64,000 nucleotides of DNA from Takakia lepidozioides (GCA_030704615.1 CM060732.1:11098001-11162000); one strand, 5' to 3'. Shown: positions 1,158 through 60,061, counted from the first letter of the stretch. The notes: generated from the letters alone by a model not told the origin. Numbers and translations: made by a program.

Positions 1158-1160
1158 CTA
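1152..1160 (-). promoter_or_regulatory. Putative stop-codon readthrough signal UAG CAA CCA (copy 1)
   Basis: TAG at 1158-1160 is followed by 42 sense codons in frame with the RT ORF. The context fits CARYYA. Confidence 0.75.
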
Positions 1161-34450: not shown

Positions 34451-34582
34451 AATATTTTCTATTTTTTATTTTTAACATAGGTACTAACACGTAAAGGTTT
34501 ATTTCAAAAAAAGATGTCAGTACATTACAAATGGATGTATGAACGTTTATAAAAAATAGGGTTTTGTTTTAATTATAATAAA

Positions 34583-36280
34583 TGTCATGGTTTTGGTCAT
34601 GGTTATCTAGAATTACCTACTTCTAGTTAACTAGGACATTTTAGATATTTATATTTATATTTTGTGTGTTGGGACTTCATTGGGTCTCACATGCCAAGTG
34701 AGGCGTCGAGCCTCAATTGGGACATGGGGATATGTTTTCCCCTTGTGAGGATGGAGGAGGCTCATCTTCTTGTAGTTGAGCCTCCATGAGCTTCTCTCAC
34801 CTCCATAGCTCTAGGTATTGAGAGGGAGTGTGTTGAGGGCTTTGTAGGGTGGATTCCCTTGGCAAGGGTGCCCTTGGCTTGACTTGTTTATGTGATAGAG
34901 TGGATTTCACTTGGAAGGACTAGGGCTTGTTCTTAGTGTGATTGCTTCATGCTTTGAGAGTTTTCATTGTCTTCCACTTCTCTCATTTCTCATCTCTTAT
35001 CACTACAAGAAGATCTATTTATGCTTGTGAGTGCGGAGTGTAAGGATTAGTTTTGCACTTGTATATTAAAGAGGTTGAGAGCTAGGAGAATTTAGCTCTT
35101 GTATCACAAGGCTTGCAAGGGGTTGCAAGGAAAGGTGCTCGGGTGTTGCATGCACCAAGGAGTTGGAGAGCTTGAGAAGGAAGCTCTTGAGTTACAAGAT
35201 TTTGCAAGGATTGCAAAGAGGAAGTCTTGTGTGTGTGGAAGCAATGATTCTAGGGTTTGAGAATCCTTTGTATGCATTATGGAGTCAATGGTGTGCGCCA
35301 TGGTTTATGGAGAGTGATTAAAGGATTGTTAGTGCTCATTTCACTATCAAGCTAGGGTTAAGCAAGTTCAAGGTGTGGATGTTGTGGAAAAGAAACCAAT
35401 GAGCTACATAGGCTTGGGCTTGAAGACAACAAGGGCAAGTACTTGGAGAGCACTAAGAAGCTCAAGAGGTTTTTGAAGGGAGAATGTGAAGAAATGTTCC
35501 AATCATGGTGGTGTGGAGCCAAGCTTAGGGCGCCATTGGAAGGGCTTGGAGAACATATGGTGGAAAATCCTTGAAGGAAAATCATCATTCAATGTATGCA
35601 TAGCTTCACCCTAACTATGTAATGTGACAAGAGGGGGAGGCAATACTTGGCTATTCATGCTCTTGGTAATGCGAGCTTTGTGGTGGATAGTTGACCAAGC
35701 AAGTGGTGCATGTGTGGAGCATGCTCTCTTGAGTTTGTAAGTTCAAGTTTGAGAAAGGGAGCTCTTGAACTAGCAAGAGGTGAAGGCCTTGAGATCCATT
35801 TGTGTGTGAAGTGGAGAGGTGTTGATTCATGTTATGATGAAGGAGAGCAACACGTAGGCAAAGAGGTCATGGAACATGCATTCAAATGACTAAGGGGAGC
35901 ACATGGATGATGAATTGGTGCAAGACCCCAAATGGCGTGAGAGTGGGATCCAAGGCGGATTGCTTGGGAGCATTATTGTAAGTGACAAGCATTGCTCCTA
36001 CACATTGAGATAATTTGTGTTGATTTGGAACAATTGTGTGATGAGGAGACAAATGCATGATTGTTCGGCAATGGAGATATGGTAGTTTGCAATCAAATCC
36101 CAAGGACTAGAAGGGGGATTGATTTGGTGGACAATGACTTGCAAGTTGAGTTGGACCACTCTTGGTTGCACATTGGGGTGGAAGAGAGCAAGAAGATGTC
36201 TCTTATGATCACCTAGAGACCATATTTTTGCTTGAGTAGAAGCATAGAAGCCAAGGACTTGCATTCTAGCTCTTCATTAC
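34583..36280 (+). mobile_element. 5' fragment (X-type repeat 34583-35002 plus leader) of a third, divergent relative of the DNMT-Gypsy family
   Basis: TGTCA...TTATCA ends. Hairpin GGAGGCTCA-loop-TGAGCCTCC. The adjacent site CTACAAGAAGAT (35003-35014) is complementary to 34764-34775. Leader motif TGCATGTGTGGAGCATGCT is shared with the copy 2 leader. The right boundary is approximate. Confidence 0.75.
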
Positions 36281-36595: not shown

Positions 36596-38778
36596 CAGTG
36601 AAGTATTTTGCCACGTAGCCTAAGTTGTTCCCAAAACAACTTAGGTGGCAAGATACTTTAGCGGTGTTCGACGTGGATATCCAGTACAAACCGGGACGAG
36701 ACAATGTGGTGGCCGATGCCTTAAGTAGAAAGCAGCAGCTCATGCTGGTATATAGGGGCGAGACGACGCTCCAAAGAAGATCCGGAAGACTTACCGGAAG
36801 GATGAGATGACGAAGTCTGTGATGCGAGACTTGAGGATGGGGTGAAATCGCAGTTCCACGTACAAAATGGACTGCTCCGGTACAAGCAAAAGCGTCTTTA
36901 TGTGTCGAAGGAAGGGATCAGAGATAGTCTCTTGAGAGAATGTCATATGGCCCGCTTTCGGGCCACGGTGGAGCCAAGTGCACCGCGGCACTCCTGAAGA
37001 AAGAGTATTTCTGGCCCAAACTGAGGGAGGAAGCCGATGAGTATGTCAAGACATGCACCATATGCCAACAAAATCGGAGCGAGTACAAAAAGCAAGCGAG
37101 GCTGTTACAACCCTTGCCAATTCCAAAGGGGTCTTGGGAAAGTGTCTCAATGGATTTCATGACTGCTATGCCGCTGTCAAAAGGATTCAGTAAAATGGGC
37201 CATTTTATTCCCACCAAGGAGACGGCAACGGCATAGGAGACGGGACGACTTTACTTCGCCCACATCTTCAAGCGAAGGATATTGTCTTGGACTGCGATCC
37301 AAAGTTCACAAGTAAATTTTGGAGGGCACTCTGGAAGAAAATGGGGACGATGCTCAAGATGAGCACCGCCTTCTGACCTACGACGGACGGCCAAATAGAA
37401 AGGGTGAATTTCGTGGTGAAGCAGATCTTGCGGAATCACATGTCGGCAGACCAATCGGACTGGGTGGAGCACTTGGACGCGGCAGAGTTCTGTTATAATA
37501 ACACAAAACACTCCGCAATGGGAGTTTCCCCTTTCGTATTGATCTATGGAAAAGCACCTCTGGTGCCGACAAATTGGGCCGCCCAAGACATTGAAGAACT
37601 GGCAACAGCAGCGGTGTTGGAAGAACGCAAGCGTTTGTTGAAGCTCGCAAAGTATAACATTGCCAAAACTAGGAAACGGTATGAACGGCAAGCGAATCGG
37701 AAGCAGAGGGAAATTAAGTTTGAGGCATGCACAGAGGTCTGGTTGAACATCAAGAATTTCCGACTACCTCCGGAAGTGGGTCCGAAATTCGTACCTCCAT
37801 ATGCGGGACCCTTTCGCATCCGAAAGGTTATGAATGAGGATATGTATGAATTGGAGCTATCGGCAAACAGCAAGGTGCATCTGGTATTCCACGTCTCACT
37901 TTTGCAGCCTTACTTCAAAGATGAAGCGCATCCGAATCGGCATCAAGTATTGCGTCCGCCACCCGTGCTGTTGGATCATGAAAATGAACCTGAGTACGAG
38001 GTGAAGGCAGTGCTAAGTCGAGGAGGTTCAAGAATTGAAAAAAGGAGTATCTCGTGGAATGGAAGGGCTATCATCATGTGGAGGCATCTTGGGTGCATGC
38101 CTCAGAAATGGGAAACGCATCCGAGGCGGTTGCAGCTTTCGAATGACGATCTCAAAAGCGGAAGAAGCGTTGATGGGGACATCAACCTTGGATCGTGGGG
38201 GAGGAAATGCATGCTTAGCCCGGCTTAGCTAGCTCAGGAATCTGTTTGCAAAAACTTGTATTGTACAAATTTTGTTGTAAATGAAATGGTTTCCAAATAT
38301 CGTGTTTCATATCTTATTTGGAATGGTGATGCATGGTATGGTTGGCTAGTGTGTAGAATGCATGCTAGCTTACAAAGTGAGAGAGGTAAATTGGATTAAT
38401 CGTGTATTTGTGTACTGTCGAAATCGGGTGACTCCCATCCAAGGGGCAAGGAAACTTGCAGCTTCGTTGGGAGTTCACGTGCTAGTGCGCACCTGGCGCG
38501 TGCGCGTACTATAACTGCGCTACCGAGGGGGTTGTCTTGTAGTGCGGGCTAACGCGGAAGCTACGTGCTTCTGTTCACATACTATAATCGTGTAGCCTCG
38601 GGATGAAGTCGTAATGCGGCTTCGGCATGTTCCCGTACCTTAGGCCAGCATTCCAAGGCAGACCCAATGTAGTGATTGGGGCGCACGGTTAGTTCAAGGT
38701 TATCTTCCTAGTCAAAAAAAGGTTCAAGACGAACCCTTGCTCAAGGTGATGCCAAAAGCGGCATCAGGAGCGGTTACA
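36596..38778 (+). mobile_element. Degenerate chromovirus (Tf2-type Gypsy) 3' part: end of RNase H, integrase, chromodomain, PPT and probable 3' LTR
   Basis: IQYKPGRDNVVADALSR; GHGG...CTICQ; WESVSMDF; GPFRI; EYEVKAVL...EYLVEWKGY. Purine tract near 38197-38207. Candidate LTR about 38208-38778 ending GCGGTTACA. Confidence 0.85.
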
Positions 38779-40624: not shown

Positions 40625-42045
40625 GTGATGACTTATGTGGGCATTAACGACCACATAATTCGTAACCTCACAAAGCTACGTGAGGAGCTGGAGGAGTTGC
40701 TTTTAGCGATCTCATCTCGCCATCCACGTCGTGTCACCATTGAGGTGAAATATGTTAAGCTAAATTTTGCCCACGATCTTCAGGCATCGTGGTACAGATT
40801 TCCTTCGCAGAAAGATGAGAGCCGCGATCATGACATTCGATTGGCAGTTCTCCGTGCAATTACTTCCTCCGTTGTGGATATAGTATCCTTGGAGTTGCAA
40901 CCGGCCGACACGAAGGCACATTACGAAGCGGAGTTGCGGAGTTCTGCAGAGGCTTGTACTCCAACCAGACTTTACGACACCTAGTCATCGGGTACTATGT
41001 TGTCGACGTAGACGGACAATTGAGTATGGTACATCACGTTGCAGAGATGCTTCGCGTGAACAACTCTCTAAAACATCTTGAGATTGATGGGATAGCCATC
41101 AACACATATTCAGCCAAGCTCTTGGCTGTCGCTTTGCCTGAAAATCGTGCCCTGCAAAATTTGCATTTGTCTCAGTCCTTCTTTCTGCCTGTGTCTACAT
41201 CCCGCGGGTCGGCAGAGGGAGTGCAAATGTTGGTGGCTCCTTTGGTTGCCACAGATCCATTAGGCTCCAACTCTGTGCTGCAGACGTTACGGATGGGGTG
41301 TTGTCTCGGATACGATAACGTCGGTTATGATGAGGCAGCCAAGCACGTGGCAGCGATGCTGTGTGGCAATTCTTCCTTGTTGGAGCTTGAGTTAATGTAT
41401 TGGAATATGACGTCGGAGGGCGGTGCTGCTATCGGCAGGGCTTTGGCCACCAACACCACCCTTACAACTCTAAGCGTGTATGGCTGCAAGATTGGGGCGG
41501 ATGGTGTGGAGGCGATAGCACAACATCTCGCACACCACAATTCTTCTCTCACACGCCTTAATGTTGGCGACACTTGGAGTACAGAGATAGAGGGAAGCAA
41601 GGCAGCCAACGCATTGGCCAACATGTTTCGATCCAACTCCACGTTGACCAATGTGGACGTGTCACGTAGTCGGTTTAACGAAGAAGGTATTGTGGAACTC
41701 TTCAAATCACTGGCCACCAACACGTCTTTGACAGACCTTGATCTTAGGGGTTGCGAGGTTGTTGCCGGGGACAGGGTGTTGGCAGCAATCGGGGATTCAC
41801 TGCGAGCCAATCTGTGTCTACAAAGACTCCTTACAGATCAATCTTCCTTGAGCATTGTAGATTGGAGTGGTGTAGAGAGAAGGGAGCAGCAATCGGTGTT
41901 ACGAGGAATGATGAGATCCGTGAGTCCGGAGGCAGCGAGCGTGTTGACTTACGGCGCCGCTGGTACTCAACCATACTTCCACTTTCTCATATTATATTCT
42001 TCCTATTTTGCTTTGCACCTCTTGAGGACGCCGAATGTAATGTAA
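40625..42045 (+). pseudogene. Ribonuclease-inhibitor-like LRR protein (TORNADO1-like N-terminus), copy A, frameshifted near 40937
   Basis: Repeats of the form L..N.SL..L.L (MLRVNNSLKHLEI, ALATNTTLTTLSV, SLATNTSLTDLDL). One base is missing relative to copy B. Possible splice donor after YGAAG. Confidence 0.75.
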
Positions 42046-42093
42046 CAAGTAACTCCGCAACACCGTGCAAGAATTCCGAATTCAGAACTAATC

Positions 42094-42282
42094 TGTCGTG
42101 CGCATACATATCGCTACACAACTACATCGCTGTCCAAAACCACACAACACATGTGCACACCACACACTAGTATACCACTAGTCTACCACTAGTCCAACCA
42201 CTAGTCCAACCACTAGGCTACAACTAGTCAGTCACTAGGCTGCCACTACGCTGCCCACTATGGCAGTCACTAGTCCACACAA
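42094..42282 (-). repeat. Terminal repeat Y, outer copy (189 bp)
   Basis: Direct repeat of 42612-42780 plus a 20-bp insertion; contains many CACTAG motifs. Confidence 0.95.
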
Positions 42283-42609
42283 TGATAAAGAAGAAGAATA
42301 CAAGCACAAGCTCATGCGAGCTCACAAAGCTGAAGCATAAACTCAGGCATATATAACCTCATCACTCAAATACAAGTCAAGCCAAGTGCACCCCACGCCA
42401 TGGGGAATCCACACTACGGCGCCATAGCTAGGCGCGGTGAGGCTCAACTCGAGAAAGATGAGCCTCCCGCGCTTGCCGTGAAGATAACCACTCCAGGGCC
42501 TAAATCTGCCTTGACCCCTGGATTGACACTTGGGCCAATCCCAAATGTCAATATGTAAAAGCTAGCTATTTCCTAGCTAGTTTCACACTAGTGGTAAAAT
42601 AACTTGACA
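42283..42609 (-). repeat. Terminal repeat X, internal 3' copy (327 bp)
   Basis: Direct repeat of 53429-53755. Confidence 0.96.
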
Positions 42610-42611
42610 GC

Positions 42612-42780
42612 TGTCGTGCGCATACATATCGCTACACAACTACATCGCTGTCCAAAACCACACACTAGTATACCACTAGTCTACCACTAGTCCAACCACT
42701 AGTCCAACCACTAGGCTACAACTAGTCAGTCACTAGGCTGCCACTACGCTGCCCACTATGGCAGTCACTAGTCCACACAA
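42612..42780 (-). repeat. Terminal repeat Y, inner copy (169 bp), preceded on the element strand by PPT AGGGGGGCGA (42781-42790)
   Basis: Read directly. Joined to X through the palindrome GACAGCTGTC (42606-42615). Confidence 0.95.
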
Positions 42781-43039
42781 TCGCCCCCCTAGCTGGTGCT
42801 TAGGTCCCTCTAAGTCCAGGTAGCCACAAGATGTGATAGTGACCATAGCCTCACTAAGTCCTCCACCACTATCCCTACTACACTCAAACTCGATAGATCA
42901 AGAGGCCGGGTGCAAGAGTTGCCCCATCGTTAGTCGCCGTCTTGCAACCTGTGAACTTGAGCTTGGGATCTCATGTATTGACTCCTATGAGCTTGGCCTC
43001 CCATGTCTTGTTAGCTGCCTCCAGTCATGTCCACTGCCA

Positions 43040-46000
43040 CTATCCCAAGCAGTGTGGACACAACCAATCTCCGTCAGGAACCTTCTCAAGGGGTGGTGTC
43101 AAGCATCCCATATGCCAACCCCTTGAGCACCGATCACACACCAGCATGGTGGCTGCCCCTTTGGCAGACCCACAGAGCATGCACCTCAAACCTGCAGGTA
43201 CCACTGCCAAGTTTGGGTCAACTCTGCCATCGACATTGGGAAGGTGACATGGCGCACAATTACGCACATGGTCTCTCCAAGTCATGCCATCCCGACCCTC
43301 TAAGATCAGGACCCCTGAGGGCAACACCTCTCGAACCCTCAGAATAACACGCCCTGCAGTAACATCCAGAGTCGTAGGAGCAGTCTGCTGCAAATAAACA
43401 TAGTCACCAGGGCTAAACCTCCGAACCCCAGGACGATATCCTCCACCACGTATAGTGGCATACCTCAACGTATCACGGTGCTGTGCAATGGCAAGGTTCT
43501 CAAAAGCCATGGGCATGACTTTCTTGAACAACTCTGCACGCTGATCACATGCACGTACCCACACGTCCGGATCGTCAAGGTTAAGGACTTGAGCAGTGTC
43601 CCTACGAATGGCTGCAGGCAAATCCGGCTCTCGGCCAAAGAGAAGGAAATATGGTGAGAAGGAGGCAAGTGATGCTTGTTTGCTGAACCTGTAGCCCATG
43701 GCTAACCAAGGAACCTGAAGATCCCAATCTCCTAGGTGTCCCTTCTGCAAGCCATACTTGCGCAAACCCCTCTTCACCGTCTGAACAACTCTCTCTGCTA
43801 AGCCATCGGCCTCAGGATGATCCCGAGAAGTGGTGCGGTGGTCTATCAAGGCTTTATCACACAAAGCCTGAAACTCCCCCAAGAACTCTCTCCCTTGGTC
43901 CGTGAGTACCTCAGCTGGAGCACCAAATCGGCTAAGCACACGATCCAAGAATGCATACGCAGCCCCCTCACTAGCCTTGTCAGGCAATGGAACCAACTCA
44001 ATCCACTTGGAGAAGTGCTCCACCATCACCAACACATATCTGTGGTGGCGCATAGTCAGTGGCAACGGTCCTGCGAAGTCAAGACTCCACCTGTAGCCCA
44101 ATCCCATGATTGGTAAAGGATGCAACTGTGGTGTAGGGGCGTTGAATGAAGCACGCACCCTGTCACACACCATGCACCTAGCCACAAACTGTTGCACCTC
44201 TGTATGCATACCACGCCACCAATACTGCCCCTGCAGTAAACTGTGAGTGCGTCGCACTCCAAAATGCCCCAACTCCTCATGGGCATGCCGCACTAACCGT
44301 GCACGCTGTGTGGGGTGAGGCACAATCCTCACCCGACCATCCTCCCACACTCGAAGTAGGTGTATCCCCTCCCACTTGAACCTCTTGGCTCGTTGCAGGA
44401 TCCGATCCCTCTCCCTGGCAGTCACAATGGCTGCCGTGTCTCCCGTGCGGAGGTAGTCCAACACAGCCGAATCCTCATGTATATCTCTGGCACCACCTAG
44501 CTCATCACTAGCCTCAGGGTCCTCAGACACTCCGTCTACAGTCATCCCTGTTGTAGGTCCAATCTGACCTCCCGATGCCAAGATACACAAAAATGCAGAT
44601 GCGTGCCATCCCGGCACCATCTCCTCGTCCGTCTCACCATGCCACCGAGCTCCAGTGTCATCCTGCTGGCTCATGCATGGATTGCGACTCAATCCATCCG
44701 CATCCCGATTGACCAAACCCGGTCGATGCACAACCTGAAAGTCATACTCCTGGAGTATAAGTGCCCACCGTGCAAGCTTCCCCGTAAGCTTGTCTGACTC
44801 CATCAACCACTTGAGTGGCTGGTGATCCGTGACAAGGGTGAAAAGATTGCCGTATAGATAGCACCTGAAGTGTGCCACGGCCCACACTGCAGCTAAGCAC
44901 TCTCCCTCATATGAGCTGTACTTAGCCTCTGCAGCGTTGTTCGAGCGGCTAGCGTAAGCCACTACGAACTCTCTTCCCTCATCATCCACCTGTGTGAGCA
45001 CCGCTCCAAGCCCCAGCATGCTCCAATCCGTATGCAGCTGAAAGGGACGCCCCCTGATAGGTCGTCTCAAGATAGGCGCCGAGGTCAACCTCGCCTTGAG
45101 CTCTTGAAAAGCTCGTTCCTGCTCATCTTCCCACTGCCACTCCTGGTCCACCTTGGTCAGCTTGGTTAGAGCCTTTGCAATGGTACTAAATCCCTTGACA
45201 AACCGTCTATAATAGTTTGCCAACCCCATGAAAGCTCGAACTCGGCTCACATCCGTGGGGCGTGGAATTTGTGCAATGGCCTCTACCTTAGTCTGCTGTA
45301 CCCCCAATCCTCCAGGATATATCATGTGACCCAGATACTCAATCTGGTTGTGGAAAAACTTGCACTTCCCCGGATGCAACTTCAATCCGTGCGCTCTCAA
45401 GCGCTCCAATACCACCTGAAGGTGTCTCTCATGCTCCTCCATCGTAACACTAAAGATGATGATGTCATCTATGTAGCACCGAGCAAAGTCCACCCCTGCT
45501 AGAATCCTATCCATGACTCTCTGAAACTCTGCAGGAGCATTCTTAAGCCCAAATGGTAAGAACCGCCACTGATATAGGCAATCCTTGCCGTGCTCATTGA
45601 TCCCCCAGAATGCCGTCTTCTGCTTGTCCGCCTCCTTGATTGGCAACTGGTGATATCCGGATCGTAAATCCAAAGTGCTAAAGGCCTTAGCATGCCCGAT
45701 GGCATCAAAGATCTCCTCTGGTGTTGGCATGGCATACTTATCGGACTTGGTCTGACGATTTACAGGCCGGTAATCACCGCACATACGTCTCTCCGTCCAA
45801 TTGCCATAGACATCCTTCTTGGCTGGCATCACTGTGGCTGAAGCATACTCTCCACCAGAGAGCTCCACCAAACCTGCCTCCCAGAGATCTTGAGTCCTCA
45901 TCTGAATCAAAGACCTCTCCATGTCACTGTATCTATAGGGTCTCCGAAAGATTGGCGTGTCAGTGGCCAACTCAATACGGATCTCTTGACCCTTCAGTGC

Positions 46001-46174
46001 TCCCAAGTCCTTCAAACTGAAGGCAAAGCAATTCCTGTAAGCCCTCAGGAACCGCCGTATACGTCGTCTCTCTCCTCCGGTGACAATGGGTCCAATGTCA
46101 GGCTCCCAATTGTCCTCCGTAACTACAACCTTAAGTCCAGTGGGCTTAGAGGTAGAGGACGCGTCCCGTGGTTG
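43040..46174 (-). CDS. Pol: RT - RNase H - integrase - PHD finger; intact frame starting directly after the UAG at 46175-46177
   Basis: YIDD; LHTDWS; HEELGH...CMVC; D-D-E residues in SLDFAG, LTDQG and AERVV; C-terminal C4HC3 motif CMLC...CDRC...WHMGC...WLCPHC. The 53 codons between the stop and 46015 are open. Confidence 0.95.
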   Translation of the reverse strand, partial: QPRDASSTSKPTGLKVVVTEDNWEPDIGPIVTGGERRRIRRFLRAYRNCFAFSLKDLGALKGQEIRIELATDTPIFRRPYRYSDMERSLIQMRTQDLWEAGLVELSGGEYASATVMPAKKDVYGNWTERRMCGDYRPVNRQTKSDKYAMPTPEEIFDAIGHAKAFSTLDLRSGYHQLPIKEADKQKTAFWGINEHGKDCLYQWRFLPFGLKNAPAEFQRVMDRILAGVDFARCYIDDIIIFSVTMEEHERHLQVVLERLRAHGLKLHPGKCKFFHNQIEYLGHMIYPGGLGVQQTKVEAIAQIPRPTDVSRVRAFMGLANYYRRFVKGFSTIAKALTKLTKVDQEWQWEDEQERAFQELKARLTSAPILRRPIRGRPFQLHTDWSMLGLGAVLTQVDDEGREFVVAYASRSNNAAEAKYSSYEGECLAAVWAVAHFRCYLYGNLFTLVTDHQPLKWLMESDKLTGKLARWALILQEYDFQVVHRPGLVNRDADGLSRNPCMSQQDDTGARWHGETDEEMVPGWHASAFLCILASGGQIGPTTGMTVDGVSEDPEASDELGGARDIHEDSAVLDYLRTGDTAAIVTARERDRILQRAKRFKWEGIHLLRVWEDGRVRIVPHPTQRARLVRHAHEELGHFGVRRTHSLLQGQYWWRGMHTEVQQFVARCMVCDRVRASFNAPTPQLHPLPIMGLGYRWSLDFAGPLPLTMRHHRYVLVMVEHFSKWIELVPLPDKASEGAAYAFLDRVLSRFGAPAEVLTDQGREFLGEFQALCDKALIDHRTTSRDHPEADGLAERVVQTVKRGLRKYGLQKGHLGDWDLQVPWLAMGYRFSKQASLASFSPYFLLFGREPDLPAAIRRDTAQVLNLDDPDVWVRACDQRAELFKKVMPMAFENLAIAQHRDTLRYATIRGGGYRPGVRRFSPGDYVYLQQTAPTTLDVTAGRVILRVREVLPSGVLILEGRDGMTWRDHVRNCAPCHLPNVDGRVDPNLAVVPAGLRCMLCGSAKGAATMLVCDRCSRGWHMGCLTPPLEKVPDGDWLCPHCLG

Positions 46175-46177
46175 CTA
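46169..46177 (-). promoter_or_regulatory. Putative stop-codon readthrough signal UAG CAA CCA (copy 2)
   Basis: Single in-frame stop between DNMT and RT. Matches UAG-CARYYA and is identical in copy 1. Confidence 0.8.
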
Positions 46178-49100
46178 TGCTGCAACCTCTTGAGCAGTAC
46201 TCCCTACCTGCTCAGTCAATGACAAGGCATCATCCTGCCCCATCATCTCATCCTTGAGGACCTCCTCAACTCGAGAAGAATCCCCAACCTCATCCATCAC
46301 AGCCGCCTTGGCTGCCAACTCCCTCTGAACCTCGAGCACCTCCCACGTGTGCCATGGATGCATGCACCCCGTGGTCCTCATATGCTCGCCCCCACTCACT
46401 GCCTGTACCGTCTCGGTAGGCAGAGAGACCATTGAGGGAAGTGTATTCCGCACTCTGCGTTGCTCAGCTAGAGCCAAGCTGATAATCCAGGTCAAGCAAT
46501 TGAGATCCATTGCTTGCCCCAACACTTGACGACGTGATGCCTCAGAAAGAGACGACACCGCCGTGGTACCAGTGGTAAAACCCATTGCCCGCTCACGCTC
46601 GTCAGCATTAGGCTCCACTAACTGCTGCAACTGAGCATCCCACAGGAGGCCAGGTCCACTATCCCGGAAAGCATGCGATCCTGGGAAGCTGAGCAGTGTA
46701 GGTAATGCTGCTCGTGGTTGACCCACCTTGTTGACCACTGCCAAAGGCGAACGGTCATCGTGTCTCACACGTTGAGACTGCCTCCCTGTGTCCAGAATGT
46801 TATCCACTGTGAGATGTGCTGGCCGCTGCACCCCATCAAATGCACGCTTGAGCAGTGCGGGTGGCATCATGTTAGTCCACCATAGCCGTGGACGATGAGC
46901 CCGTGACCCCACTGTAGCTGCATCTAGCAACACTGCTGACCCAAGCCACGACCGGACTTGATGCACACTGGCCATCACCCTGGCCCGAGAATCGCCCATC
47001 AGTGGCACATTCTCCAAGATGTATGCTGGAGATACAGCTTGATGAAGCTGCAAGTGGCGCAAAACCCGCACCATCTCCCAAAACAGACCCGACCTCGAGT
47101 CTCGCAATCCATTGCCATGCCCGGCTGATGAATGCCCTTGGCAGGGCCAACCTGCCACTACCAGATCAATGGAGCCAACCCGCTCCAAATCCTGCGCCCC
47201 CAGCAACGAAATGTCTGCTGGCAAGGCCTGCTGATATCCACGAATTGCAGACACCGACAACAACTCAGGGTACCGCTGCACCAACTGAGCAACATGGCGA
47301 AGTGAAACGCGTCGTGCAGTCTCATCCCTCTCCACATACAGGTAACGCCGAACTCGTACACCTGCCTGTAACAAAGCAGCCAATCCGGTGCTGATCCCGC
47401 CAAACAAGTCCAGAAGACAAATGCCTTCATCCGGAGACTGCCACACAATAGGTGTGGTGTCCAATGGAGACAATTGAGGTGGTCCTGGTGCAATCCCCAC
47501 ACTCTCCTCCTCTCCTGACGGTACAAAAGCCTCCACCCAGGCTTGTTGCACCCGTCGATCAGCATCCCGCTGCAAATCCTTGCTCGTGCCCCACAATGGA
47601 GTCTGAGCAACCATGGTAGGCAACTCCGCCATACCATACATGTCATCCTGCTCTCCCGGAGGTGGTACATCCTCTGAATGAGCATTGCCCTCAAGCAACT
47701 CTCTAGGCCAACTCACTGCCGCTGTGAATGCTGCTAGTGTCGGCATCTTGCCTCGCTGGGCAACCGCAACTCCTCCTATGAACGTCACAGGGAGCTGCAC
47801 ACGCCGGCCCTCCCCTGACTGCCATGCAGGCCTATAGGAAGCTGACTCCTCCCAAAAATCCAGGGTGAAGCCCATGGGGTACAACACTGCCCCACCAACC
47901 AGGACATCGTATGAGACTGCGTCTGTCACAATGGCCTTGGCTCGCATCACTGAGCCATCTGTAGGGTGATCCGGCCGTAGTCTGATAGCCAACTCATGCC
48001 GTGTCATGCCCCGAGCCTGCTCCGATCCTCCCAGAGACGTCTGTATCTGGAAAGGACAAGGCTCCATATCCGCCTCCGTGAGGCCCAAGCCTGCAATAGC
48101 AGCTCTGCCCAGCATCAGTGGCTGAGCTCCCGAGTCCAACAAGACTCGCAGTGGCCGGTACCTCTTGCCTGCCGGTCCACTCAAACAGAAAATGCCATCC
48201 TGGTTGTCTAACATGACAACTCCAGGTGTCACCATGGCGCGCTCAATGGCTGGCCTAGCTGGCAGCTCCATCAACCTGGCAGCTGCAGCTTGCCATGGCG
48301 CCGCCGTGGCAGTCTTGACCCTCAAATCCGAGGATCCCTCCGGCACTACACCTCCCACTATCTCCGCAGAAGATGAAGTAACCTCCCCACTCTCACAGAG
48401 TGTAGCTGCCAGCCTGAACACCTCAGCTGGTCTTATCCCCGGCGTCGCAATCATGGTAGCCGAGAACAATGGAGCCTGGCACACAGATGTGGCCGCTCCT
48501 ACAGCACACTAGCTGCCGTAGCCTTGGCAACACTAGGTAGTGGTGCTGCCCGTGTAGCTCTCCCCAATGGCATAGTAACCTCCGCCTCGGTAATAGTCGG
48601 GCGAGAACTAGGTGCCATGGATGGCGTCGACACTGTCTCCGCCAATGTGAATGACTGAGGAAGCCTAGCCTGACGGCTTGCCTCCCCACGCTGTGGATCC
48701 AACTCCACCTCTGCACCTCGTGGCTCAGGAACTCGTGCTGCTCCTCGAGTCACGGCTGCAGCAGACTCCACCTGCACTAGTGGTAGTGCTGCTCCACACA
48801 TGAATCCCATGCCTCCCATATCTCCTCCCTCAGGAGCAGGAGGTGGACCATCCGGCCTTAGAGCCGGTACCACCTGAGCTGTAGCCATGGCAGCGAGCCT
48901 CTGCTCTAGCTGCTGAAGCCGGTTGGCCATGCCTTGGTCAACACCCTGACCTCCGCGTCCTTGGCCACGTTGAGCTTGCCCTTGGCCTGCACCTCGTGGC
49001 TGGCCACCTCGTCCTCTCTGGGCTGCTCCACCTCGCCCCCGGCCACCATTGTTCCCTTGGAACTGGCCTGGGCGCAACTCAGGATGCAAACCTATAACAC

Positions 49101-50346
49101 TGGGCCTCTCCATGCCCGTGCTTGCCACAATGCCCACACTGCAACTGTGCAGGCTGTGCATGTGCCGACCCTTTGCCTCCCTCTGGGCAATCCTTCTTGA
49201 CATGGGGTCCTCCACATGTCCAGCACACCACATCCGCCCGTTGTTGGCCAGCAAATGAAGGGAGAGACCCCTGCATTGAGGTCCTCTCTGCCCTTCCCTG
49301 AGCTTCACCTGAGCCCCCTTGTTGCCTTGAGCACGTTGAGGTAGTGGTTGGCTAGGAGCACCACTACCCCGTGGTGTCTCCTTAGCAAATCCCACCATGA
49401 CCACTCGTTCCTCCACCATGTTGAGCTCTATCCGCTCTGCCAGCAAAAACACATTTGCTAAGGTGGGTTGGGCCGCTTGTAGGAGAGTTGCATCCCGCAC
49501 CCTTCTCCTCAGCTCCTTGTCCAATATCCCATACCAGAATTGGACTGCCTGAGCTTCCGTAACCCCTTGGGTTACATTTATCAAGCGCCTCATGCGAGTG
49601 AAAGCCTCCCTCAAGCTCTCGGTCGGCTTCCGTTGGAACTCTTGCAAGCTCCGCAACTTCTCTGTCCTCACCCCTTGGTAGTTCCCTCTCAACTCTTCGA
49701 AGAACTCCACAACAGGGTTGAAGGCAGGCACGGGTGCTAGTGCTGGTGCGGTAGTGGCTTGGGTGGACGTCGTAGCTACTGTACCACCAGTCCCACTGCT
49801 GCTTGCTGAAGCTGCCGGTGCAGCGGCAGGTGTAGCCACTGCCCTCGTGGCTCTAGTGCCCCTAGTGATGGAGACATAGTCGGGTGACCAGTACATCCTC
49901 CACTCCTCGATCTCAACCTCATGCCCCCGCCTGAACTCATGGTAATCATCCATAGGCGGCCCCTCAAGGTGCTGAAACAGCCCTTTCCATGCCATGAACG
50001 GCGTAAATAGTTGTGGATTGCGCATTTGCTGCAAATCACACCAACTATCAAACTCTTGGATAAAATCATCCAACTCAATGGTGCCCACCGCCCCAGAGTA
50101 CCTTCGTGGCCCCTTGGTAGCTCCATACATCTCCTCCATTGTGTCCCACAATAATGGCAAAGAAACAACTTGCACCGCCTGTATGAGCCCTCCTGATTCA
50201 CAATCCGAATCAGAACCTTCCGTGGAAGACACAGGAGGTGAAGGTGGCCTAAACCGCACACCTCGTCTCGTGTACCCACTAGTATCGCTAGTGCTCGAAC
50301 CGGCACTGTCCCCAGCAACTAGTGGCACCTCCGTGTTGACACTCAA
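46175..50346 (-). CDS. Gag - aspartic protease - DNA (cytosine-5) methyltransferase polyprotein (MTase about 46490-47425); a few 1-bp indels
   Basis: Gag with two CCHC knuckles (shifted frame 49079-49276) and protease LLDSGAQ. MTase motifs I DLFGGISTG, IV GWPCQG, VI ENV, VIII AHRPRLWWTN, IX ERERAMGF and X RRQVLGQAMD. The break near 48500 is open in copy 1. The true start codon is uncertain. Confidence 0.92.
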
Positions 50347-50637
50347 CCGGTCATGAACATGTCCCTAACCCCCTCTCCACAAGGTAACCGGGTAGAGAAC
50401 CTGTTGCGGCTTATGGTTTGGAATACTAAGTTCCTAACATAGCCTACACCTGAACTTGCATGACCATGGGAATATCATGAAGATACTCCTCAAACCGCCC
50501 TCCACGAGCTTCAAAATTCGGCCTTCCAGACCACATGCCAGTCCTTAGTCCACCAGTGCCTCCACAAGTCAGCACATGCCATCCACAGGTCAACACGGGC
50601 CACCACAGACCAGCACAGGCCCACACAGCTCACTGGT

Positions 50638-51890
50638 CACAGCCGTCACAGTCCCACAGGCCACTGGGCACAGCCCCTCACAGCCCCTCACAGCTCGTCA
50701 CAGCCTCAAAGGCCTCAGGCACAGCCTGTCACAGCCCCTCACAGCCCGTCACAGCCCCAAAGGCCTCAGGCGCGGCCTGTCACAGCCCCTCACAGCCCGT
50801 CACAGCCCCAAAGGCCTCAGGCACGGTCTGTCACAGCCCCTCACAGCCCGTCAGAGCCCCAAAGGCCTCAGGCGCGGTCTGTCACAGCCCCTCACAGCCC
50901 GTCACAGCCCCAAAGGCCTTAGGCGCGGCCTGTCACAGCCCCTCACAGCCCGTCACAGCCCCAAAGGCCATGGGCACGGCCTGTCACAGCCCCTCACAGC
51001 CCGTCACAGCCCCAAAGGCCTCAGGCGCGGCCTGTCACAGCCCCTCACAGCCCGTCACAGCCCCAAAGGCCATGGGCACGGCCTGTCACAGCCCCTCACA
51101 GCCCGTCACAGCCTCAAAGGCCTCAGGCACGGCCTGTCACAGCCCATCACAGCCCCAAAGGCCTCAGGCACGGCCTGTCACAGCCCATCACAGCCCCAAA
51201 GGCCTCAGGCACGGCCTGTCACAGCCCCTCACAGCCCGTCACAGCCCCAAAGGCCTCAGGCGTGGCCTGTCACAGCCCCTCACAGCCCGTCACAGCCCCA
51301 AAGGCCATGGGCACGGCCTATCACAGCCCCTCATAGCCCGTCACAGCCCCAAAGGCCTCAGGCACGGCCTGTCACAGCCCATCACAGCCCCAAAGGCCTC
51401 AGGCACGGCCTGTCACAGCCCCTCACAGCCCGTCACAGCCCCAAAGGCCATGGGCACGGCCTGTCACAGCCCCTCACAGCCCGTCACAGCCTCAAAGGCC
51501 TCAGGCACGGCCTGTCACAGCCTGAGACAGCCCGTCACAGCCCCACAGGGCACAGGGCACAGCCTGTCACAGCCCATCACAGCCCATCACAGCCTCAAAG
51601 GCCTCAGGCACGGCCTGTCACAGCCCCTCACAGCCCATCACAGCCCCAAAGGCCATGGGCACAGCCTGTCACAGCCCCGCACAGCCCGTCACAGCCCCAA
51701 AAGGCCACTGGGCACAGCCTGTCACAGCCTGACACAGCCCGTCACAGCCCCACAGGGCACAGGGCACAGCCTGTCACAGCCCATCACAGCCTGTCACAGC
51801 TTGCCACAGCCCATCACAGCCCGTCACAGCTCGCCACAGCCTGACACAGCCCGTCACAGCCCGTCACAGCTTGCCACAGCTTGCCACAGC
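50638..51890. repeat. Tandem array of 51-bp (some 41-bp) units built from 10-bp TCACAGCCCS subunits, in the element leader
   Basis: The unit TCACAGCCCCTCACAGCCCGTCACAGCCCCAAAGGCCTCAGGCGCGGCCTG is repeated more than 20 times. Confidence 0.96.
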
Positions 51891-53416
51891 CCCACACATG
51901 GCCGCTCTGGCAGTTTAGCCATTTCTCCAAGGGGTTTAGCCACGCCAAGCTAGGGTTTGTGTCTCTTGGACTCTAGGCTTCTTTCCACCGAGCTATGGTG
52001 GCTGTGAGGAAATCAGCAAGGTATCCTTGCTCTTTCGGCTCCCACACACCACCATAGTAGCCCTAAGCCATGAGGTGGTTGCCACAAACCAAGCCTTCTT
52101 TCTCACTTAGCCTCCCCAAACACGCCACTAAACTCAATGGCAAACAACCAAGTCCTGCTGGTTCCCAGCCCTTGTGAGCACTCATTCAAGCACTCTCCTT
52201 GGCCATAGCATCTGTCTTAGAGCCTCTTCCAGCCCCCTACACCTGCTGCTTCAAGAGTTGCGCTCCCTTCAAGCTTGAAGTTGAAACCCCAACTCACATA
52301 TGCCCTACAAGTGCTTTTCTTTCACTCCAAGTGGAAACCAGCCCTAGACCTTCCGTTCTAGCTCTCTAAAGCTTGAAAACAAGAGCCTCAATGGGCTGAA
52401 GGCATGCTCCACACATGCCCCACTCTCACCATAAAAGAATCAGCTCCTTTGCTTCATTTCTTACACCCACAAACCTGAAAATACAAGCTTCAGCATGCTG
52501 AAAGCATGCTCCACATGCCCTACAGGGAAACCAGCCCCTTCCTTCCTTTCTTGCACTCCCACACCTGAAAGTGCAAGCCTTCACCAGGCTGATAGCATGC
52601 TCCACACATGCATTGCCCTCACATAAGGGAAGTCAGCCCTTCCCTCTTCCTTGCTTGCCCTCCAAGCTTGAAGATGGAAGCTTCAATGAGCTGAATACAT
52701 GCTCCACACATGCAACCTCTTCACACAAGAGATATCAGCCCCCTATCTTGGCTCCTTGGCTCCTTGATGCTCTCTAAGACAAGACTAAGCACTCCATAGC
52801 CTTTGCCAAGCTCCTGAAACCCTAAGGCTTACATTTCCAGCCACAAGACACTTCTCTTGTGGTGCAAGAGCTCTTCTTCCAAGCTCTGTAACCCTAGGTG
52901 CACATTCCATGGCCTTGCCGCACCTCTTAGCTCCTGTTCCAGCCCTGCTCTCGCCATGACAAGAGCCCTCTCAATGCTGAAGCTCGAGATTGAAACCCAA
53001 TCTCACCATACTCCACAAAGTGCACTGATTTGCCCCAAGCCAAATCAGCCCTTTCGCTTGGTCTTGCAATCCTTCACACAATGACAGCTCGCATTCCCAA
53101 GTCCAGTTCTCAGCTTTGCCACCAAAGCCACTATAACCTGCTCTTGACTGGTCCTCTTCCCAATCGTGCTTGCTCATGCATGTACACAATCTGGAACCAT
53201 CAAGGTGCTCTGGAATTACCTGCAGCATGGTGCTTTCATCTCTGAAGCTGAAGATCGAATGCCAAGGTCTACCACCTCGTAACCCACATCGCCTCCGCTT
53301 CTAACAACTAAGAGCTCCGCGGTGCTCCTTGCATAACAACTTGGTTTCTCTCATTCTCAAGCAAAAACCACAAGTGCTACAACTAACTCGTATCTGGCAC
53401 TCATAGATACGAGCTG

Positions 53417-53428
53417 ATCTTTCTCGAG
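53417..53428 (-). promoter_or_regulatory. Non-tRNA primer-binding site CTCGAGAAAGAT, complementary to 53594-53605 inside repeat X
   Basis: Abuts the 5' repeat, lacks the TGG of tRNA PBSs, and shows perfect 12-nt complementarity. Confidence 0.8.
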
Positions 53429-53755
53429 TGATAAAGAAGAAGAATACAAGCACAAGCTCATGCGAGCTCACAAAGCTGAAGCATAAACTCAGGCATATAT
53501 AACCTCATCACTCAAATACAAGTCAAGCCAAGTGCACCCCACGCCATGGGGAATCCACACTACGGCGCCATAGCTAGGCGCGGTGAGGCTCAACTCGAGA
53601 AAGATGAGCCTCCCGCGTTTGCCGTGAAGATAACCACTCCAGGGCCTAAATCTGCCTTGACCCCTGGATTGACACTTGGGCCAATCCCAAATGTCAATAT
53701 GTAAAAGCTAGCTATTTCCTAGCTAGTTTCACACTAGTGGTAAAATAACTTGACA
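53429..53755 (-). repeat. Terminal repeat X, 5' copy (327 bp)
   Basis: TG...CA ends, followed by the TSD AATC. Confidence 0.96.
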
Positions 53756-54695
53756 AATCATTGGATGGTATGGATCGTAAGTCGATCAATGCAATAATTT
53801 GATCCTGTCGCTGAAGTGGATTACCGCAGTGGAACCCCTCGGCCAGTGGGGATTGCAGCCTGTCGGACTCCCATCAAAGTTCACCTCATCCTCCCAGTGG
53901 CAGAGGGGTTCCATATCACCTAACCTGCCGTTAAGAGACGCTGTAGAACCGGCAAAGAGTCTCAGTGTATACAATTTATCCCAATCTTAACATGAGGTAA
54001 ATGAATGAATACCGAAGTTCAAACTGAGGCTGTATCAATTTACTATGATTCATTTACTTTTACTCTCCCCTTGAAGAGATGGGCTCAAACCTTCCAAAAT
54101 AAAAATAGAATAAAAGACGCATTGCTTGGAACAAACACCCATACGGTAGTGTCTGTTCCGTCACAAAGGTAGTGTCTGTTCCCATTTGTTTCGCCAACCA
54201 GGGCATTGGTAAATTTAACCTGATCCCAGATTTCTTCATTCTCTGAATCGAGGATACAAGTAATCTGGAAGTCCGGGGTCCAAGGGTGTTGCGACATTGG
54301 AATGAGCGTTTGAGGCTATTGGGCTCTCAAGTCAACTTCAGAGTCAGCTTCACACTATTTCTATTTCCTTGTGACTGTTGGGGATATATGAAAGGATCAC
54401 ACAAAAGCAGGTCACGTCGCAACTTACTGCAACCCGGTCTGTTGTACCGTAGTGGGAGCCATTGATTCTACAGCTCATAAGGTCCGGTTATATGATTTGA
54501 CCTTGCTGGGGTGCCCTTGGGACTGAAGATTAGATCATTCCGGAATTTGACGTCATAAAAGTGTATAACTCGTCACCCTTTTCGCTCCCATGCATATGTG
54601 CACACGAACTGTGTTCCCGATTTTGCCCTCAGTGTGTAGGAGGATGGGAACAGAGGAGTTAGGGTTTAAGGATACATCGTTCCCTTGGTCCGAAC

Positions 54696-56247: not shown

Positions 56248-57162
56248 GTTCGAGTGGGTGCAGAGTGTTAATAAGTGAACGTGTAGGGAATTCCAAAAAG
56301 GCCTTGATGTGAAATGCATCGCAATTCACTTGATCACCCCCTAAAAGTGCGCAATTCAATTGAACTACTAAAACTAGCTTGAAAACAACCCTAATTTGCA
56401 ATGCAATTGAATTGTTGGCACATGAGTCAATTGAATTGTGAATTGGCAATTCAATTGAATTGTAATCTATGATTTTTAACTTATTTCTGTATATAATATA
56501 TAATATGTATATGTATATGTATATATTCAAATTATACTTATACACATATAAGAGTATAAGCTAAAAATACAAGTTGCCCATCTATTCTTGCTGGCCCTCT
56601 TTCTTGTGCCCTTGAGGAAATTGTGGAGTTGTGAAGCCACCTCAGCCTCAACGAGAAAGGGAGAGACGGAGAGAGATCAGCAGCTTCCTGTGATTCATTG
56701 GCAAAAGAAACATGGCTGGCTCCGAAAGAAACAGACAAAATCAAACTTGACAATTGATGAAAGGTTCCCCTGCATCATCTTGAGAATTATCAAAAATAAT
56801 ATTGTTTCGATACCCTGCATCTGCACTTTTTACTTTCAGTTTTGTAGCAGGGGGCGTGAACGCCGAGCCACCGCGCTGAATGCAGAAAGGTGATGGTTTC
56901 TGCATTACATGGTGGCTGATCGCCCCATCGCTTTGCAAGGGCTTGTAAAGGGCTTCATGTGCAGCTAACCGTGTCTAGAGGGGGAACCTTACTATACTGA
57001 CGTGCGGTGGATGGCAGACTGAGTGTCCGATTCTCACCTTTCAATCAAGTTCCCGATCGCTCTCATCGTACACAAAGTGTACAAAGGTGCTTCTCGATAC
57101 GAACGTGGACTTGTCGGAAGCGGTTGTCGTCGTATTTGAGGGCCCCCTTTCTTCCGGTTGTA

Positions 57163-58569
57163 ATGGCGAGTGATAACCATTTGGAGGTGGAGCAGTTGCG
57201 TTTATCGGTCTCATCTCGCGATGCACATCATGTCGCCATTGGCGATCCACATCATGTCGTCATTGTGGTGTATTCTGTTACGGTAAAATTCGCCGACAAT
57301 CGTCGGGAGTCGTTTTACAGATTTCCTTTGCAGAAAGATGAGAGCCGCGATCACGACATTCGATTGGCAGTTCTCCGTGCAATTACTTCCTCCGTCGTGG
57401 GTATAGAGTCCTTGGAGCTGCAACCGCCCGACACGAAGTCACATTACGAAGTGGAGTGGCAGGAGTTCTGCAGAGGCTTGTACTCCAACCAGACTTTACG
57501 ACACCTAGTCATCGGGTACTATGTTGTCGACGTAGACGGACAATTGAGTATGGTACATCACGTTGCAGAGATGCTTCGCGTGAACAACTCTCTAAAACAT
57601 CTTGAGATTGATGGGATAGCCATCAACACATATTCAGCCAAGCTCTTGGCTGTCGCTTTGCCTGAAAATCGTGCCCTGCAAAATTTGCATTTGTCTCAGT
57701 CCTTCTTTCTGCCTGTGTCTACATCCCGCGGGTCGGCAGAGGGAGTGCAAATGTTGGTGGCTCCTTTGGTTGCCACAGATCCATTAGGCTCCAACTCTGT
57801 GCTGCAGACGTTACGGATGGGGTGTTGTCTCGGATACGATAACGTCGGTTATGATGAGGCAGCCAAGCACGTGGCAGCGATGCTGTGTGGCAATTCTTCC
57901 TTGTTGGAGCTTGAGTTAATGTATTGGAATATGACGTCGGAGGGCGGTGCTGCTATCGGCAGGGCTTTGGCCACCAACACCACCCTTACAACTCTAAGCG
58001 TGTATGGCTGCAAGATTGGGGCGGATGGTGTGGAGGCGATAGCACAACATCTCGCACACCACAATTCTTCTCTCACACGCCTTAATGTTGGCGACACTTG
58101 GAGTACAGAGATAGAGGGAAGCAAGGCAGCCAACGCATTGGCCAACATGTTTCGATCCAACTCCACGTTGACCAATGTGGACGTGTCACGTAGTCGGTTT
58201 AACGAAGAAGGTATTGTGGAACTCTTCAAATCACTGGCCACCAACACGTCTTTGACAGACCTTGATCTTAGGGGTTGCGAGGTTGTTGCCGGGGACAGGG
58301 TGTTGGCAGCAATCGGGGATTCACTGCGAGCCAATCTGTGTCTACAAAGACTCCTTACAGATCAATCTTCCTTGAGCATTGTAGATTGGAGTGGTGTAGA
58401 GAGAAGGGAGCAGCAATCGGTGTTACGAGGAATGATGAGATCCGTGAGTCCGGAGGCAGCGAGCGTGTTGACTTACGGCGCCGCTGGTACTCAACCATAC
58501 TTCCACTTTCTCATATTACATTCGTCCTGTTTTGCTTTGCACCTCTTGAGGACGCCGCATGTAATGTAA
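57163..58569 (+). CDS. RI-like LRR protein (TORNADO1-like N-terminus), copy B, open frame
   Basis: ORF 57007-58569 with first ATG at 57163 and the same LRRs as copy A. No downstream ROC-COR exon recognised. Confidence 0.75.
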   Translation: MASDNHLEVEQLRLSVSSRDAHHVAIGDPHHVVIVVYSVTVKFADNRRESFYRFPLQKDESRDHDIRLAVLRAITSSVVGIESLELQPPDTKSHYEVEWQEFCRGLYSNQTLRHLVIGYYVVDVDGQLSMVHHVAEMLRVNNSLKHLEIDGIAINTYSAKLLAVALPENRALQNLHLSQSFFLPVSTSRGSAEGVQMLVAPLVATDPLGSNSVLQTLRMGCCLGYDNVGYDEAAKHVAAMLCGNSSLLELELMYWNMTSEGGAAIGRALATNTTLTTLSVYGCKIGADGVEAIAQHLAHHNSSLTRLNVGDTWSTEIEGSKAANALANMFRSNSTLTNVDVSRSRFNEEGIVELFKSLATNTSLTDLDLRGCEVVAGDRVLAAIGDSLRANLCLQRLLTDQSSLSIVDWSGVERREQQSVLRGMMRSVSPEAASVLTYGAAGTQPYFHFLILHSSCFALHLLRTPHVM

Positions 58570-60061
58570 CAAGTTACTCCGCAACACCGTGCAAGAATTC
58601 CGAATTCAGAACTAATCATTGGATGGTGTGGATCGTAAGTCGATCAATGTAATAATTTGATCCTGTCGCTGAAGTGGATTACGCAGTGGAACCCCTCGGC
58701 CAGTGGGGATTGCAGCCTGTCAGACTCCCATCAAAGTTCACCTCATCCTCCCAGTGGCAGAGGGGTTCCACATCACCTAACCTGCCGTTAAGAGATGCTG
58801 TAGAGCCTGCAAACATTCTCAGTGTATACAATTTATCCCAAGATAAATGAATGAATACCAAAGTTCAAACTGAGGCTGTATCAATTTACTATGATTCATT
58901 TACTTTTACTCTCCCCTTGAAGAGATGGGCTCAAACCTTCCAAAATAAAAGTAGAATAAAAGACGCATTTCTTGGAACAAAAACACACATACGGTATCCG
59001 TATATTGCTGCGGTGCATCTAGTTCTGCTGTACTGGTCCCGTCTCGCGAAAGCTTACTCAATCCCTCCACCAACTTAGTCAAGCCAGTCACAAGTTGATG
59101 GAAGACCCACCTCTGTCTGACAGGCTGTCGGGTCCTCCACATGCTGCGTCTGGATGTGCTCACCAAATGTTTCCATTGGATTCCATGCCATTGCGCAATT
59201 GCATTCTTAGGTTTGTTCTTGTATCATCAGCCCCCACTTCTGCTTTTTGCATTTAGCAGTCAACCATAATCAACCACAAGTACTGTAGAGCGAGAGATCA
59301 CGGAGAATCATCAAGAGTTGGTGAAAAGTCGAGATCTGATGATTTCACATGCGATTGTGGTGATGGGTGGTGTGCGGTCTCAAGGCTCGTATTCCAGGAA
59401 CAGCTGCTCCGGTTGAGAGTAACAAGTGGTGTGTATCCGTGCAGGGGTTAATGACTATGGTGGAGAAAAGGTCAAAAGCAGCAACAGGAACCAAAACCAT
59501 GTGGTATGAGGTCTCCTCGTCACTCCTTGGGGGTACCAAATGGTATTGTCTACGATTGGTGTATGTTAGGCTAGGTCATAGGTGCAAGTGAGTGTGTCTG
59601 GAAGAGGTCATCGTCTCAAAGTTCCTTTCTTTTGTCATGGTAACAAGCGGACCCTTACCGCTTGGGGGCAGCCCTCCGCCCAAATTGGGCAGTCGTATGC
59701 TCTGTCTAGCATACTCGGCACTTGGGCTCGGGTTGGTTCCTGTGCTTAAACTTATAGCCTGCGACTACAATCAAAATTTTAGCTCCTATCAACATCAACA
59801 CTCCTCAGGGTGATTCCTGGGAATTGGTTACTTATGCCAAATCTAGGGCTTCATGTGTAGTTTTTGGGGCGAATCCCAGGATGGACGATGTGTCCTTTAA
59901 AACTACATGCTCTAGCTTAGGCTTGGATTTCATGGCTAATGGTTCCATCTCGAGACTTGATAACAGGGGTACGTTGAAGGTTGCAATGACCAAAAGTGCT
60001 TCTAATAGAGTCCCACAGTCCCTTGATTGGCTGGAGAGCGGTCTTAGACATTGGTGATTCA

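Follow-up and report, generated by a model that had tools for sequence, protein, structure and literature searches.

A conserved in-frame TAG behind a DNMT3-like domain as a candidate readthrough switch in a land-plant Ty3/Gypsy lineage

How does a retrotransposon make its polymerase when a stop codon stands in the middle of its coding region, between a captured DNA methyltransferase and the reverse transcriptase (RT)? The question is raised by a 64,000-nucleotide stretch of Takakia lepidozioides DNA (GCA_030704615.1 CM060732.1:11098001-11162000), here called the window, with positions counted from its first letter. An 11.7-kb Ty3/Gypsy element on its minus strand encodes Gag, protease and a DNMT3-like domain, then TAG and CAA CCA and, in the same frame, RT, RNase H, integrase and a PHD finger. 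In one copy of the element, copy B, Pfam places a C5 DNA methylase before the TAG, with RT, RNase H, integrase and PHD finger domains behind it; a decayed second copy, copy A, lies at the start of the window. The TAG of copy B (46175-46177, minus strand) is the only stop within 1822 codons (48508-43043) and is followed by the hexamer CAA CCA (46169-46174), which fits the readthrough motif CAR-YYA. We consider it quite probable, from the frame and from the comparisons below, that this TAG is a programmed leaky stop, kept together with CAR-YYA across the lineage.

A preliminary sequence-only reading had described a lone in-frame TAG between DNMT and RT in the tobamovirus context UAG-CARYYA. Both statements were borne out, the first over the 1822 codons of copy B and the second by the minus strand of both copies, which reads GCA TAG CAA CCA CGG at 46180-46166 in copy B and at 1163-1149 in copy A (TAG CAA CCA at 1152-1160, with the TAG at 1158-1160). 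Only 5 of the 1572 TAG triplets on the two strands of the window are followed by CARYYA, and 2 of these 5 are the sites in copies A and B; the hexamer is unlikely to follow these TAGs by chance. A 41-nt block around the stop is identical between the copies, as had been noted (46158-46198 and 1141-1181), but it has no special value, since 13 identical runs of at least 41 nt, 9 of them longer, were found between the copies in about 5 kb. It was therefore dropped as evidence. The flanking changes had been called synonymous, which was correct downstream (+6 to +30, 8/11 synonymous) but not upstream (-20 to -8), where six of the eight changed codons were nonsynonymous.

Related loci were then compared at the junction. 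A metagenome scan gave 148 confirmed loci, of which 80 were kept; 15 of the 80 end before the junction or have none, and 65 cover it. A stop was found at the junction in 64 of the 65, and a sense codon in most copies, which the sequence-only reading had named as the contrary outcome, was not seen. Most of these loci (61/65) belong to a Sphagnum-like family, which groups with a Sphagnum fallax protein in the DNMT tree. Its 49 distinct junctions comprise 34 TAG, 14 TAA and 1 TAC, with the hexamer CAACCC in 45 and an in-frame ATG at codon +3 in 45. The remaining four loci have TAG CAACCA (L014), TAG CAGTTA (L054 and L057) and TAG CAATCA (L061). The proposed check, that TAG and CAACCA be invariant across copies, came out well for the stop and not for the hexamer, which varies and is CAACCC in the largest family.

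CAR-YYA is present in the window copies, L014, L054, L057 and L061, and in four of the five lineages the hexamer (CAACCA, CAACCA, CAGTTA and CAATCA) differs only as CAR-YYA permits, with changes that alter the second residue (Pro, Leu or Ser). TAG CA is invariant in five family representatives. For most family pairs, ungapped identity is 0.28-0.48 over the 60 nt that precede the TAG and 0.20-0.55 over the 51 nt that follow the hexamer; for L054 against L061 it is 0.62 and 0.63, respectively. L054 is intact and has exactly two frames, a Gag-protease-DNMT frame of 1369 codons and a second of 1047 codons, which abut at TAG CAG TTA. It is this conservation between families, not the 41-nt identity, that counts as evidence for the stop. 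The five lineages share an ancestor and, therefore, the conservation shows retention rather than independent origin. No RNA fold was shared across the junctions, and downstream structure z-scores ran from +1.55 to -2.67.

Purifying selection acts on both frames. Between the window and L014, L002 and L054, synonymous sites are saturated, with pS of 0.70-0.88 across DNMT, RT and RNase H. Where it could be computed (the window against L014, L002 or L054, and L054 against L061), dN/dS was 0.03-0.13 and was low on both sides of the stop. The stops of the window, L014, L002 and L054 align, and the linker before the stop stays open, with dN/dS of 0.43-0.62.

Within the window's own family, the DNA run X2 supplied 556 contigs over 46142-46210. 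No TAG variant of at least 1% was listed, and the sole listed difference of at least 1% affects the codon preceding the stop (46180, about 20% of depth); because differences are listed only away from contig ends, this test covers approximately 46172-46180 and only part of the hexamer, and X2 may be the source of the window itself. A wider contig comparison listed 40 of 157 variable places and carries no information on the stop. A contig under another species label (X13) also reaches across the junction, in a listing that carries no information on its stop. No RNA run was listed as containing the family, and one raw RNA run gave 0 matching reads in the roughly 1% of it that was sampled, a result without weight as a test. 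One contig from a run only guessed to be RNA has an unspliced junction with no central difference listed, and it is no evidence of transcription.

The TAA junctions were considered as a working variant of the stop, and this was rejected. The 14 TAA copies are unclustered (13 changes versus 12.1 for shuffles, on 48 of the 49 copies, with L011 left out because of a nested insertion), and G-to-A decay at other TAG triplets in the Sphagnum-like family is 0-0.38. TAA is therefore attributed to decay and does not discriminate between readthrough and splicing. G-to-A decay in this family (L001-L080) depends on context, at 0.18-0.28 in CG/CHG, 0.11-0.17 at other AG and TTG sites and 0.02-0.04 in GG, and is a trace of host methylation. 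The lone sense codon, TAC at L026:6960-6962, encodes tyrosine, which in the viral context is the amino acid put in at UAG, but L026 is decayed and this may be chance. Other elements are nested within about 60 bases of the stop in L011, L012, L051 and L052.

Protein searches gave 30 and 55 matches from the best approximately 8000 candidates scored, and the close relatives named among the matches listed are from Marchantia polymorpha, Calypogeia fissa and Sphagnum. Several proteins end 52-114 residues past DNMT (P0005, P0006 and P0008 from Marchantia, P0033 from Calypogeia, and P0012, P0032, P0035 and P0044-P0046), and their last residues, judged by protein sequence alone, resemble the DNA-verified stops. 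P0034, P0040 and P0049 also stop short and are possibly decayed or truncated. The RT tree (29 rows) unites the ten stop-bearing loci with two Marchantia models in a clade supported at 100/99, every DNA-verified member of which carries the stop. Its sister is P0013 with P0054 (97/95); these two and P0062 are sister elements with the same domain order, DNMT then RT, and without the stop. The DNMT tree (66 rows, FastTree) agrees with the RT tree, and both are midpoint-rooted. The trees suggest that the stop was likely gained once, after DNMT had reached its present position. A related group (P0016-P0030, P0058-P0060, P0063, P0065-P0069, P0072 and P0073), with one member named from the green alga Monoraphidium, has DNMT between RNase H and integrase. 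This arrangement labels 25 rows of the DNMT tree, some of them fragments that show one neighbor only, and the position of the DNMT has changed within one lineage. No sequence named Klebsormidium was among the protein matches listed, and a search of viral contigs for relatives found nothing.

Readthrough fits the junction because the two frames abut in frame, the hexamer follows the stop and no usable AUG lies behind it. The first in-frame ATG after the stop is at codon 85 in the window, 117 in L054 and 48 in L014, while similarity to RT starts at codons 35-78. One full-length RNA would start from the 5' repeat of the element (repeat A), and most ribosomes would release Gag-protease-DNMT3 at the TAG. 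A minority would read on, adding RT, RNase H, integrase and the PHD finger, when a near-cognate tRNA, which carries tyrosine in the tobacco mosaic virus context (PMC2754532), decoded UAG at a rate of some per cent. The protease would then cut both products, and particles would hold protease and DNMT in amounts about equal to Gag but RT and integrase in much smaller amounts. Under readthrough, one protease and one DNMT would be made per Gag, and both may persist in the particle. A more speculative step is that packaged DNMT would methylate new cDNA or the insertion site, as has been proposed for such elements (PMC5890265; statements from the literature here and below refer to the available portions of each source). 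We offer as a tentative and rather doubtful extension that a readthrough signal of viral type was acquired behind the captured DNMT3 of a land-plant, split-repeat Gypsy lineage and so turned the enzyme from a Pol passenger into Gag-level cargo. Capsids loaded with methyltransferase would then methylate the cDNA they contain ahead of its insertion by a PHD-guided integrase, and new copies would arrive already methylated.

Published work supports the capacity of the motif. CAR-YYA alone is sufficient for readthrough in plants (PMC2754532; background in PMC2194720), and plant reporters with the viral context, including the CAA before the stop, gave 6-10% readthrough in stable lines and up to 32% in transient assays, with tyrosine inserted (PMC2754532).

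Several observations weigh against readthrough or against the role proposed for the methyltransferase. The stop is preceded by GCA or GAY, whereas the virus has CAA at this codon, which enhances its readthrough. In the Sphagnum-like family, CAACCC fits five of the six CAR-YYA bases, lacks the last A and is followed by an in-frame ATG. The invariance inside this family mostly reflects descent from a few masters, so the independent evidence amounts to about five lineages, which are themselves related. At the similar-looking junction of Tca2, a reporter showed no readthrough and a minor promoter is present (PMC2194720), and a related Klebsormidium DNMT was inactive in yeast, a result that its authors call inconclusive (PMC5890265). 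Five gene models (P0002-P0004, P0010 and P0064) fuse DNMT to RT with the linker shortened as by introns. Finally, copy B as read cannot make Gag-PR-DNMT (PR, protease) because one base has been lost between gag and protease, near 48495-48502 relative to copy A, and its gag frame stops early. This loss is private to the copy or an assembly error. The sequence-only reading had joined Gag, protease and DNMT in one product, which is what L054 encodes in one frame, and the stretch from Gag to protease is in one frame in 33 of the 48 copies that cover it; copy B is a frameshifted exception to that claim. A programmed frameshift between gag and protease was also considered and rejected: copy B and L061 are shifted, but the 33 copies have no shift, and those in the remaining copies are scattered.

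Other routes to the downstream protein were weighed against the leaky stop. RT-integrase could be made from a start of its own, through reinitiation after the stop or from a short RNA that a promoter in the linker provides, which we consider unlikely. A promoter at the junction does exist in Tca2 (PMC2194720). The proposal is most plausible in the Sphagnum-like family, where the hexamer is CAACCC and 45 of the 49 distinct copies have ATG as codon +3, and L057 and L061 also have an ATG at +5 and +14, respectively. However, neither window copy has an early ATG, nor do L014 and L054. Starting at the late ATGs of these copies would lose residues that are conserved across families and, in the window and L054, part of the RT fold as well. 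An independent start also leaves the kept frame and CAR-YYA unexplained. A Pol protein made without Gag would, moreover, need another route into the particle.

Removal of the stop by splicing, as in Ogre, with the AG of the TAG as a possible 3' splice site, is in our view quite improbable. The Ogre intron splits GAG-PROT from RT-RH-INT (RH, RNase H; INT, integrase) (PMC6317226), the five fused gene models skip the stop region, and the Sphagnum-like sequence GTTTTTGCATAG resembles a plant acceptor. The models, however, cut at differing places, as would be expected of predictors dodging a stop. T makes up 20% of the 25 nt preceding the AG of the TAG in the window, and three further AGs occur within 20 nt. 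The open linker, with its dN/dS of 0.43-0.62, is unlike an intron, and six conserved exon bases that match CAR-YYA are left unexplained. Splicing is thus disfavored by the purine-rich, AG-rich context of the window and by an open, constrained linker. The stop could also be a nonsense mutation, carried by a non-autonomous lineage that depends on a helper for its copying. Most copies seen are decayed with many other stops, and the sister elements P0013, P0054 and P0062 have none at this place. Against this, purifying selection on the RT and RNase H encoded behind the stop is strong throughout the stop-bearing families, the stop is in all DNA-verified members of the 100/99 RT clade and L054 is otherwise intact, so that a helper-dependent nonsense lineage is close to refuted.

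The predicted leaky stop has known counterparts for each of its parts. Readthrough in retroelements is already known (10.1101/2022.12.06.519325, PMC3441728, PMC2754532). Retroelements with an in-frame stop include Tj1/Tosmo/Tcry1, Tca2, VdLTRE5, MuLV (murine leukemia virus) and SIRE1, with rice RIRE2 as a candidate (10.1101/2022.12.06.519325, PMC3441728, PMC2754532, PMC2194720), and in these the stop sets the ratio of structural to replication proteins, as proposed here. The Tj1 stop is needed for transposition (as cited in 10.1101/2022.12.06.519325). In the Tj1 type the stop lies between Gag and PR-RT-IN (IN, integrase), whereas here it follows protease and DNMT, and in SIRE1 it serves an envelope-like protein. 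None of the available passages on such elements places the stop after protease plus a cargo enzyme. The type I signal of tobacco mosaic virus, UAG-CAR-YYA, has the same stop and hexamer as four of the five lineages and likewise has the polymerase behind the stop. The element differs from the virus in being a DNA-encoded retroelement, in having no CAA before the stop and in that its readthrough is predicted from sequence.

Ogre (Ty3/gypsy, Tat clade) also has its switch after protease and before RT, but approximately 274 bp between its frames are spliced out (PMC6317226), while here the frames abut in frame and DNMT precedes the switch. The noncoding spacer that separates GAG-PROT from RT in Ogre is lacking here, and the window has no acceptor-like context. 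The sequence-only reading had called this an unusual position for a Gag/Pol switch. That stands insofar as a readthrough switch after protease and methyltransferase was not found in a literature search outside which most subscription papers and Repbase entries lay; a split after protease as such is known from Ogre, by splicing.

The closest described elements are KnitGypsy-Dnmt3 of Klebsormidium nitens, Gypsy elements with an intronless Dnmt3-related gene under purifying selection, DIRS-like repeats, and DNMT in the Pol frame with RT and RNase H (PMC5890265); they are called streptophyte Gypsy-DNMT3 in bioRxiv 10.64898/2026.05.21.726589. By the published description, they resemble the present element in their Gypsy coding domains, in an intronless Dnmt3-related domain with catalytic motifs and in their repeats, A-coding-B-A-B. 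They differ in that their DNMT shares the RT frame, whereas a conserved stop separates the two here, and in that Klebsormidium is an alga, while the relatives of the present element are named from liverworts and mosses. Because of this stop, the element was filed as a variant of KnitGypsy-Dnmt3 and not as a member. Readthrough is absent from the available text of PMC5890265 on the Klebsormidium elements, and the available portions of bioRxiv 10.64898/2026.05.21.726589, PMC6338049 and PMC8310308 contain nothing on a DNMT/RT junction. The literature search, with the same coverage, returned no paper that deals with this stop or with such elements in bryophytes. The parts are known, and the arrangement, a switch behind protease and methyltransferase in a split-repeat land-plant Gypsy lineage, appears to be new.

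Why retrotransposons retain captured methyltransferases is an open question (PMC5890265). An expression switch placed just behind DNMT, in elements with stop-free sisters, suggests that DNMT dosage is important, and the sister elements offer a natural comparison. Relatives occur in Marchantia polymorpha, in which reporters, ribosome profiling and methylomes are practical. According to a 2009 source, the verified cases of readthrough in plants were then all viral, and a leaky stop here would be a chromosomal plant example of the tobamovirus signal. There is also a consequence for annotation: these frames are being annotated as genes of the host, labelled 'DNA methyltransferase' or 'hypothetical', and in some of them a predicted intron bypasses the stop.

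Copy B spans 42094-53755 (11,662 bp, minus strand), with a TG start and a CA end; its junctions were set by comparison with an empty site that survives in a paralogous stretch near 58611-58617. The target-site duplication GATT lies at 53756-53759 on the 5' side and at 42090-42093. Repeat A has a 5' copy at 53429-53755 (327 nt, 99.7% identical to 42283-42609) and a 3' copy at 42283-42609, and repeat B has a first copy at 42611-42781, with GC between its CA end and repeat A, and a terminal copy at 42094-42283, which contains a 20-nt duplication. The repeats are thus split, in the order A, genes, B, two bases GC, A, B. This layout is identical in L048, and parts of it are seen in L003, L041, L047 and L052. 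The inner B-GC-A joint, within 42094-42781, resembles a joined pair of element ends. By eye, the bases 3' of repeat A do not start TGG, and there is no obvious primer-binding site there. The element combines integrase, TG...CA ends and a 4-bp duplication with split repeats.

The gag frame of copy B (48499-50364, minus strand, first ATG at 50139) has a weak Retrotrans_gag match (E 0.003, below cut-off). The aspartic protease region (47790-48226) has the motif LLDSGA, and PF13650 was found in the relatives P0013, P0047 and P0048. The DNMT3-like C5 cytosine methyltransferase domain (46439-47431) retains LDLFGG, GWPCQ and ENV motifs, and its nearest solved relative is DNMT3A (E 2.7e-11). Behind the stop, the RT-RNase H-integrase-PHD frame (43040-46174) has 1044 codons; among solved structures only, its RT is nearest to that of Ty3 (E 3e-46), far ahead of retroviral RTs. 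The order protease, RT, RNase H and integrase, the Ty3-type RT, the TG...CA ends and the 4-bp GATT duplication, which falls in the expected range of 4-6 bp, are those of Ty3/Gypsy elements. Instead of two matching long terminal repeats, one per end, the element has A-coding-B-A-B repeats; its proteins and ends make it Gypsy, though not one of the canonical two-repeat kind. A DIRS/Ngaro assignment was rejected, as an rve integrase and a target duplication were found and no tyrosine recombinase was found in the element's three long frames. Troyka (PMC12440569), likewise an unusual element of the long terminal repeat type with the order Gag-PR-RT-RH-IN, was also rejected, since it has CG...CG ends and a 3-bp duplication, compared to TG...CA and 4 bp here, is found in animals only and has no methyltransferase mentioned in the available text.

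Copy A (1-5240, minus strand) is cut by the start of the window, is 84-96% identical to copy B and has a deletion in RT besides frameshifts and stops. In copy B, a tandem array of 10-nt and 51-nt units (50570-51892) separates repeat A from gag, and a looser 102-nt repeat (52333-52742) is also present in the leader. Diverged fragments of repeat A at 8546-8720 (70% identical) and 34844-34887 (85%) are probably older relatives.

The element sits inside one of two duplicated leucine-rich-repeat frames (LRR_6; 40834-42045 and 57001-58569), the other of which provides the empty site; one relative of this gene also bears a NACHT domain. A LINE-like remnant at 59990-63500 (plus strand) encodes endonuclease and RT domains whose frames are shifted, and a triple repeat of 141 nt lies within this region at 60147-60569. 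AT-rich arrays at 30283-31097 and 32539-34455 consist of repeats of about 57-146 nt with palindromic cores. Other matches are a Tf2-type integrase SH3 remnant at 37377-38228 (plus strand), a weak thioredoxin match at 27044-27805 (plus strand) and a weak C2HC zinc finger at 12804-13556 (minus strand).

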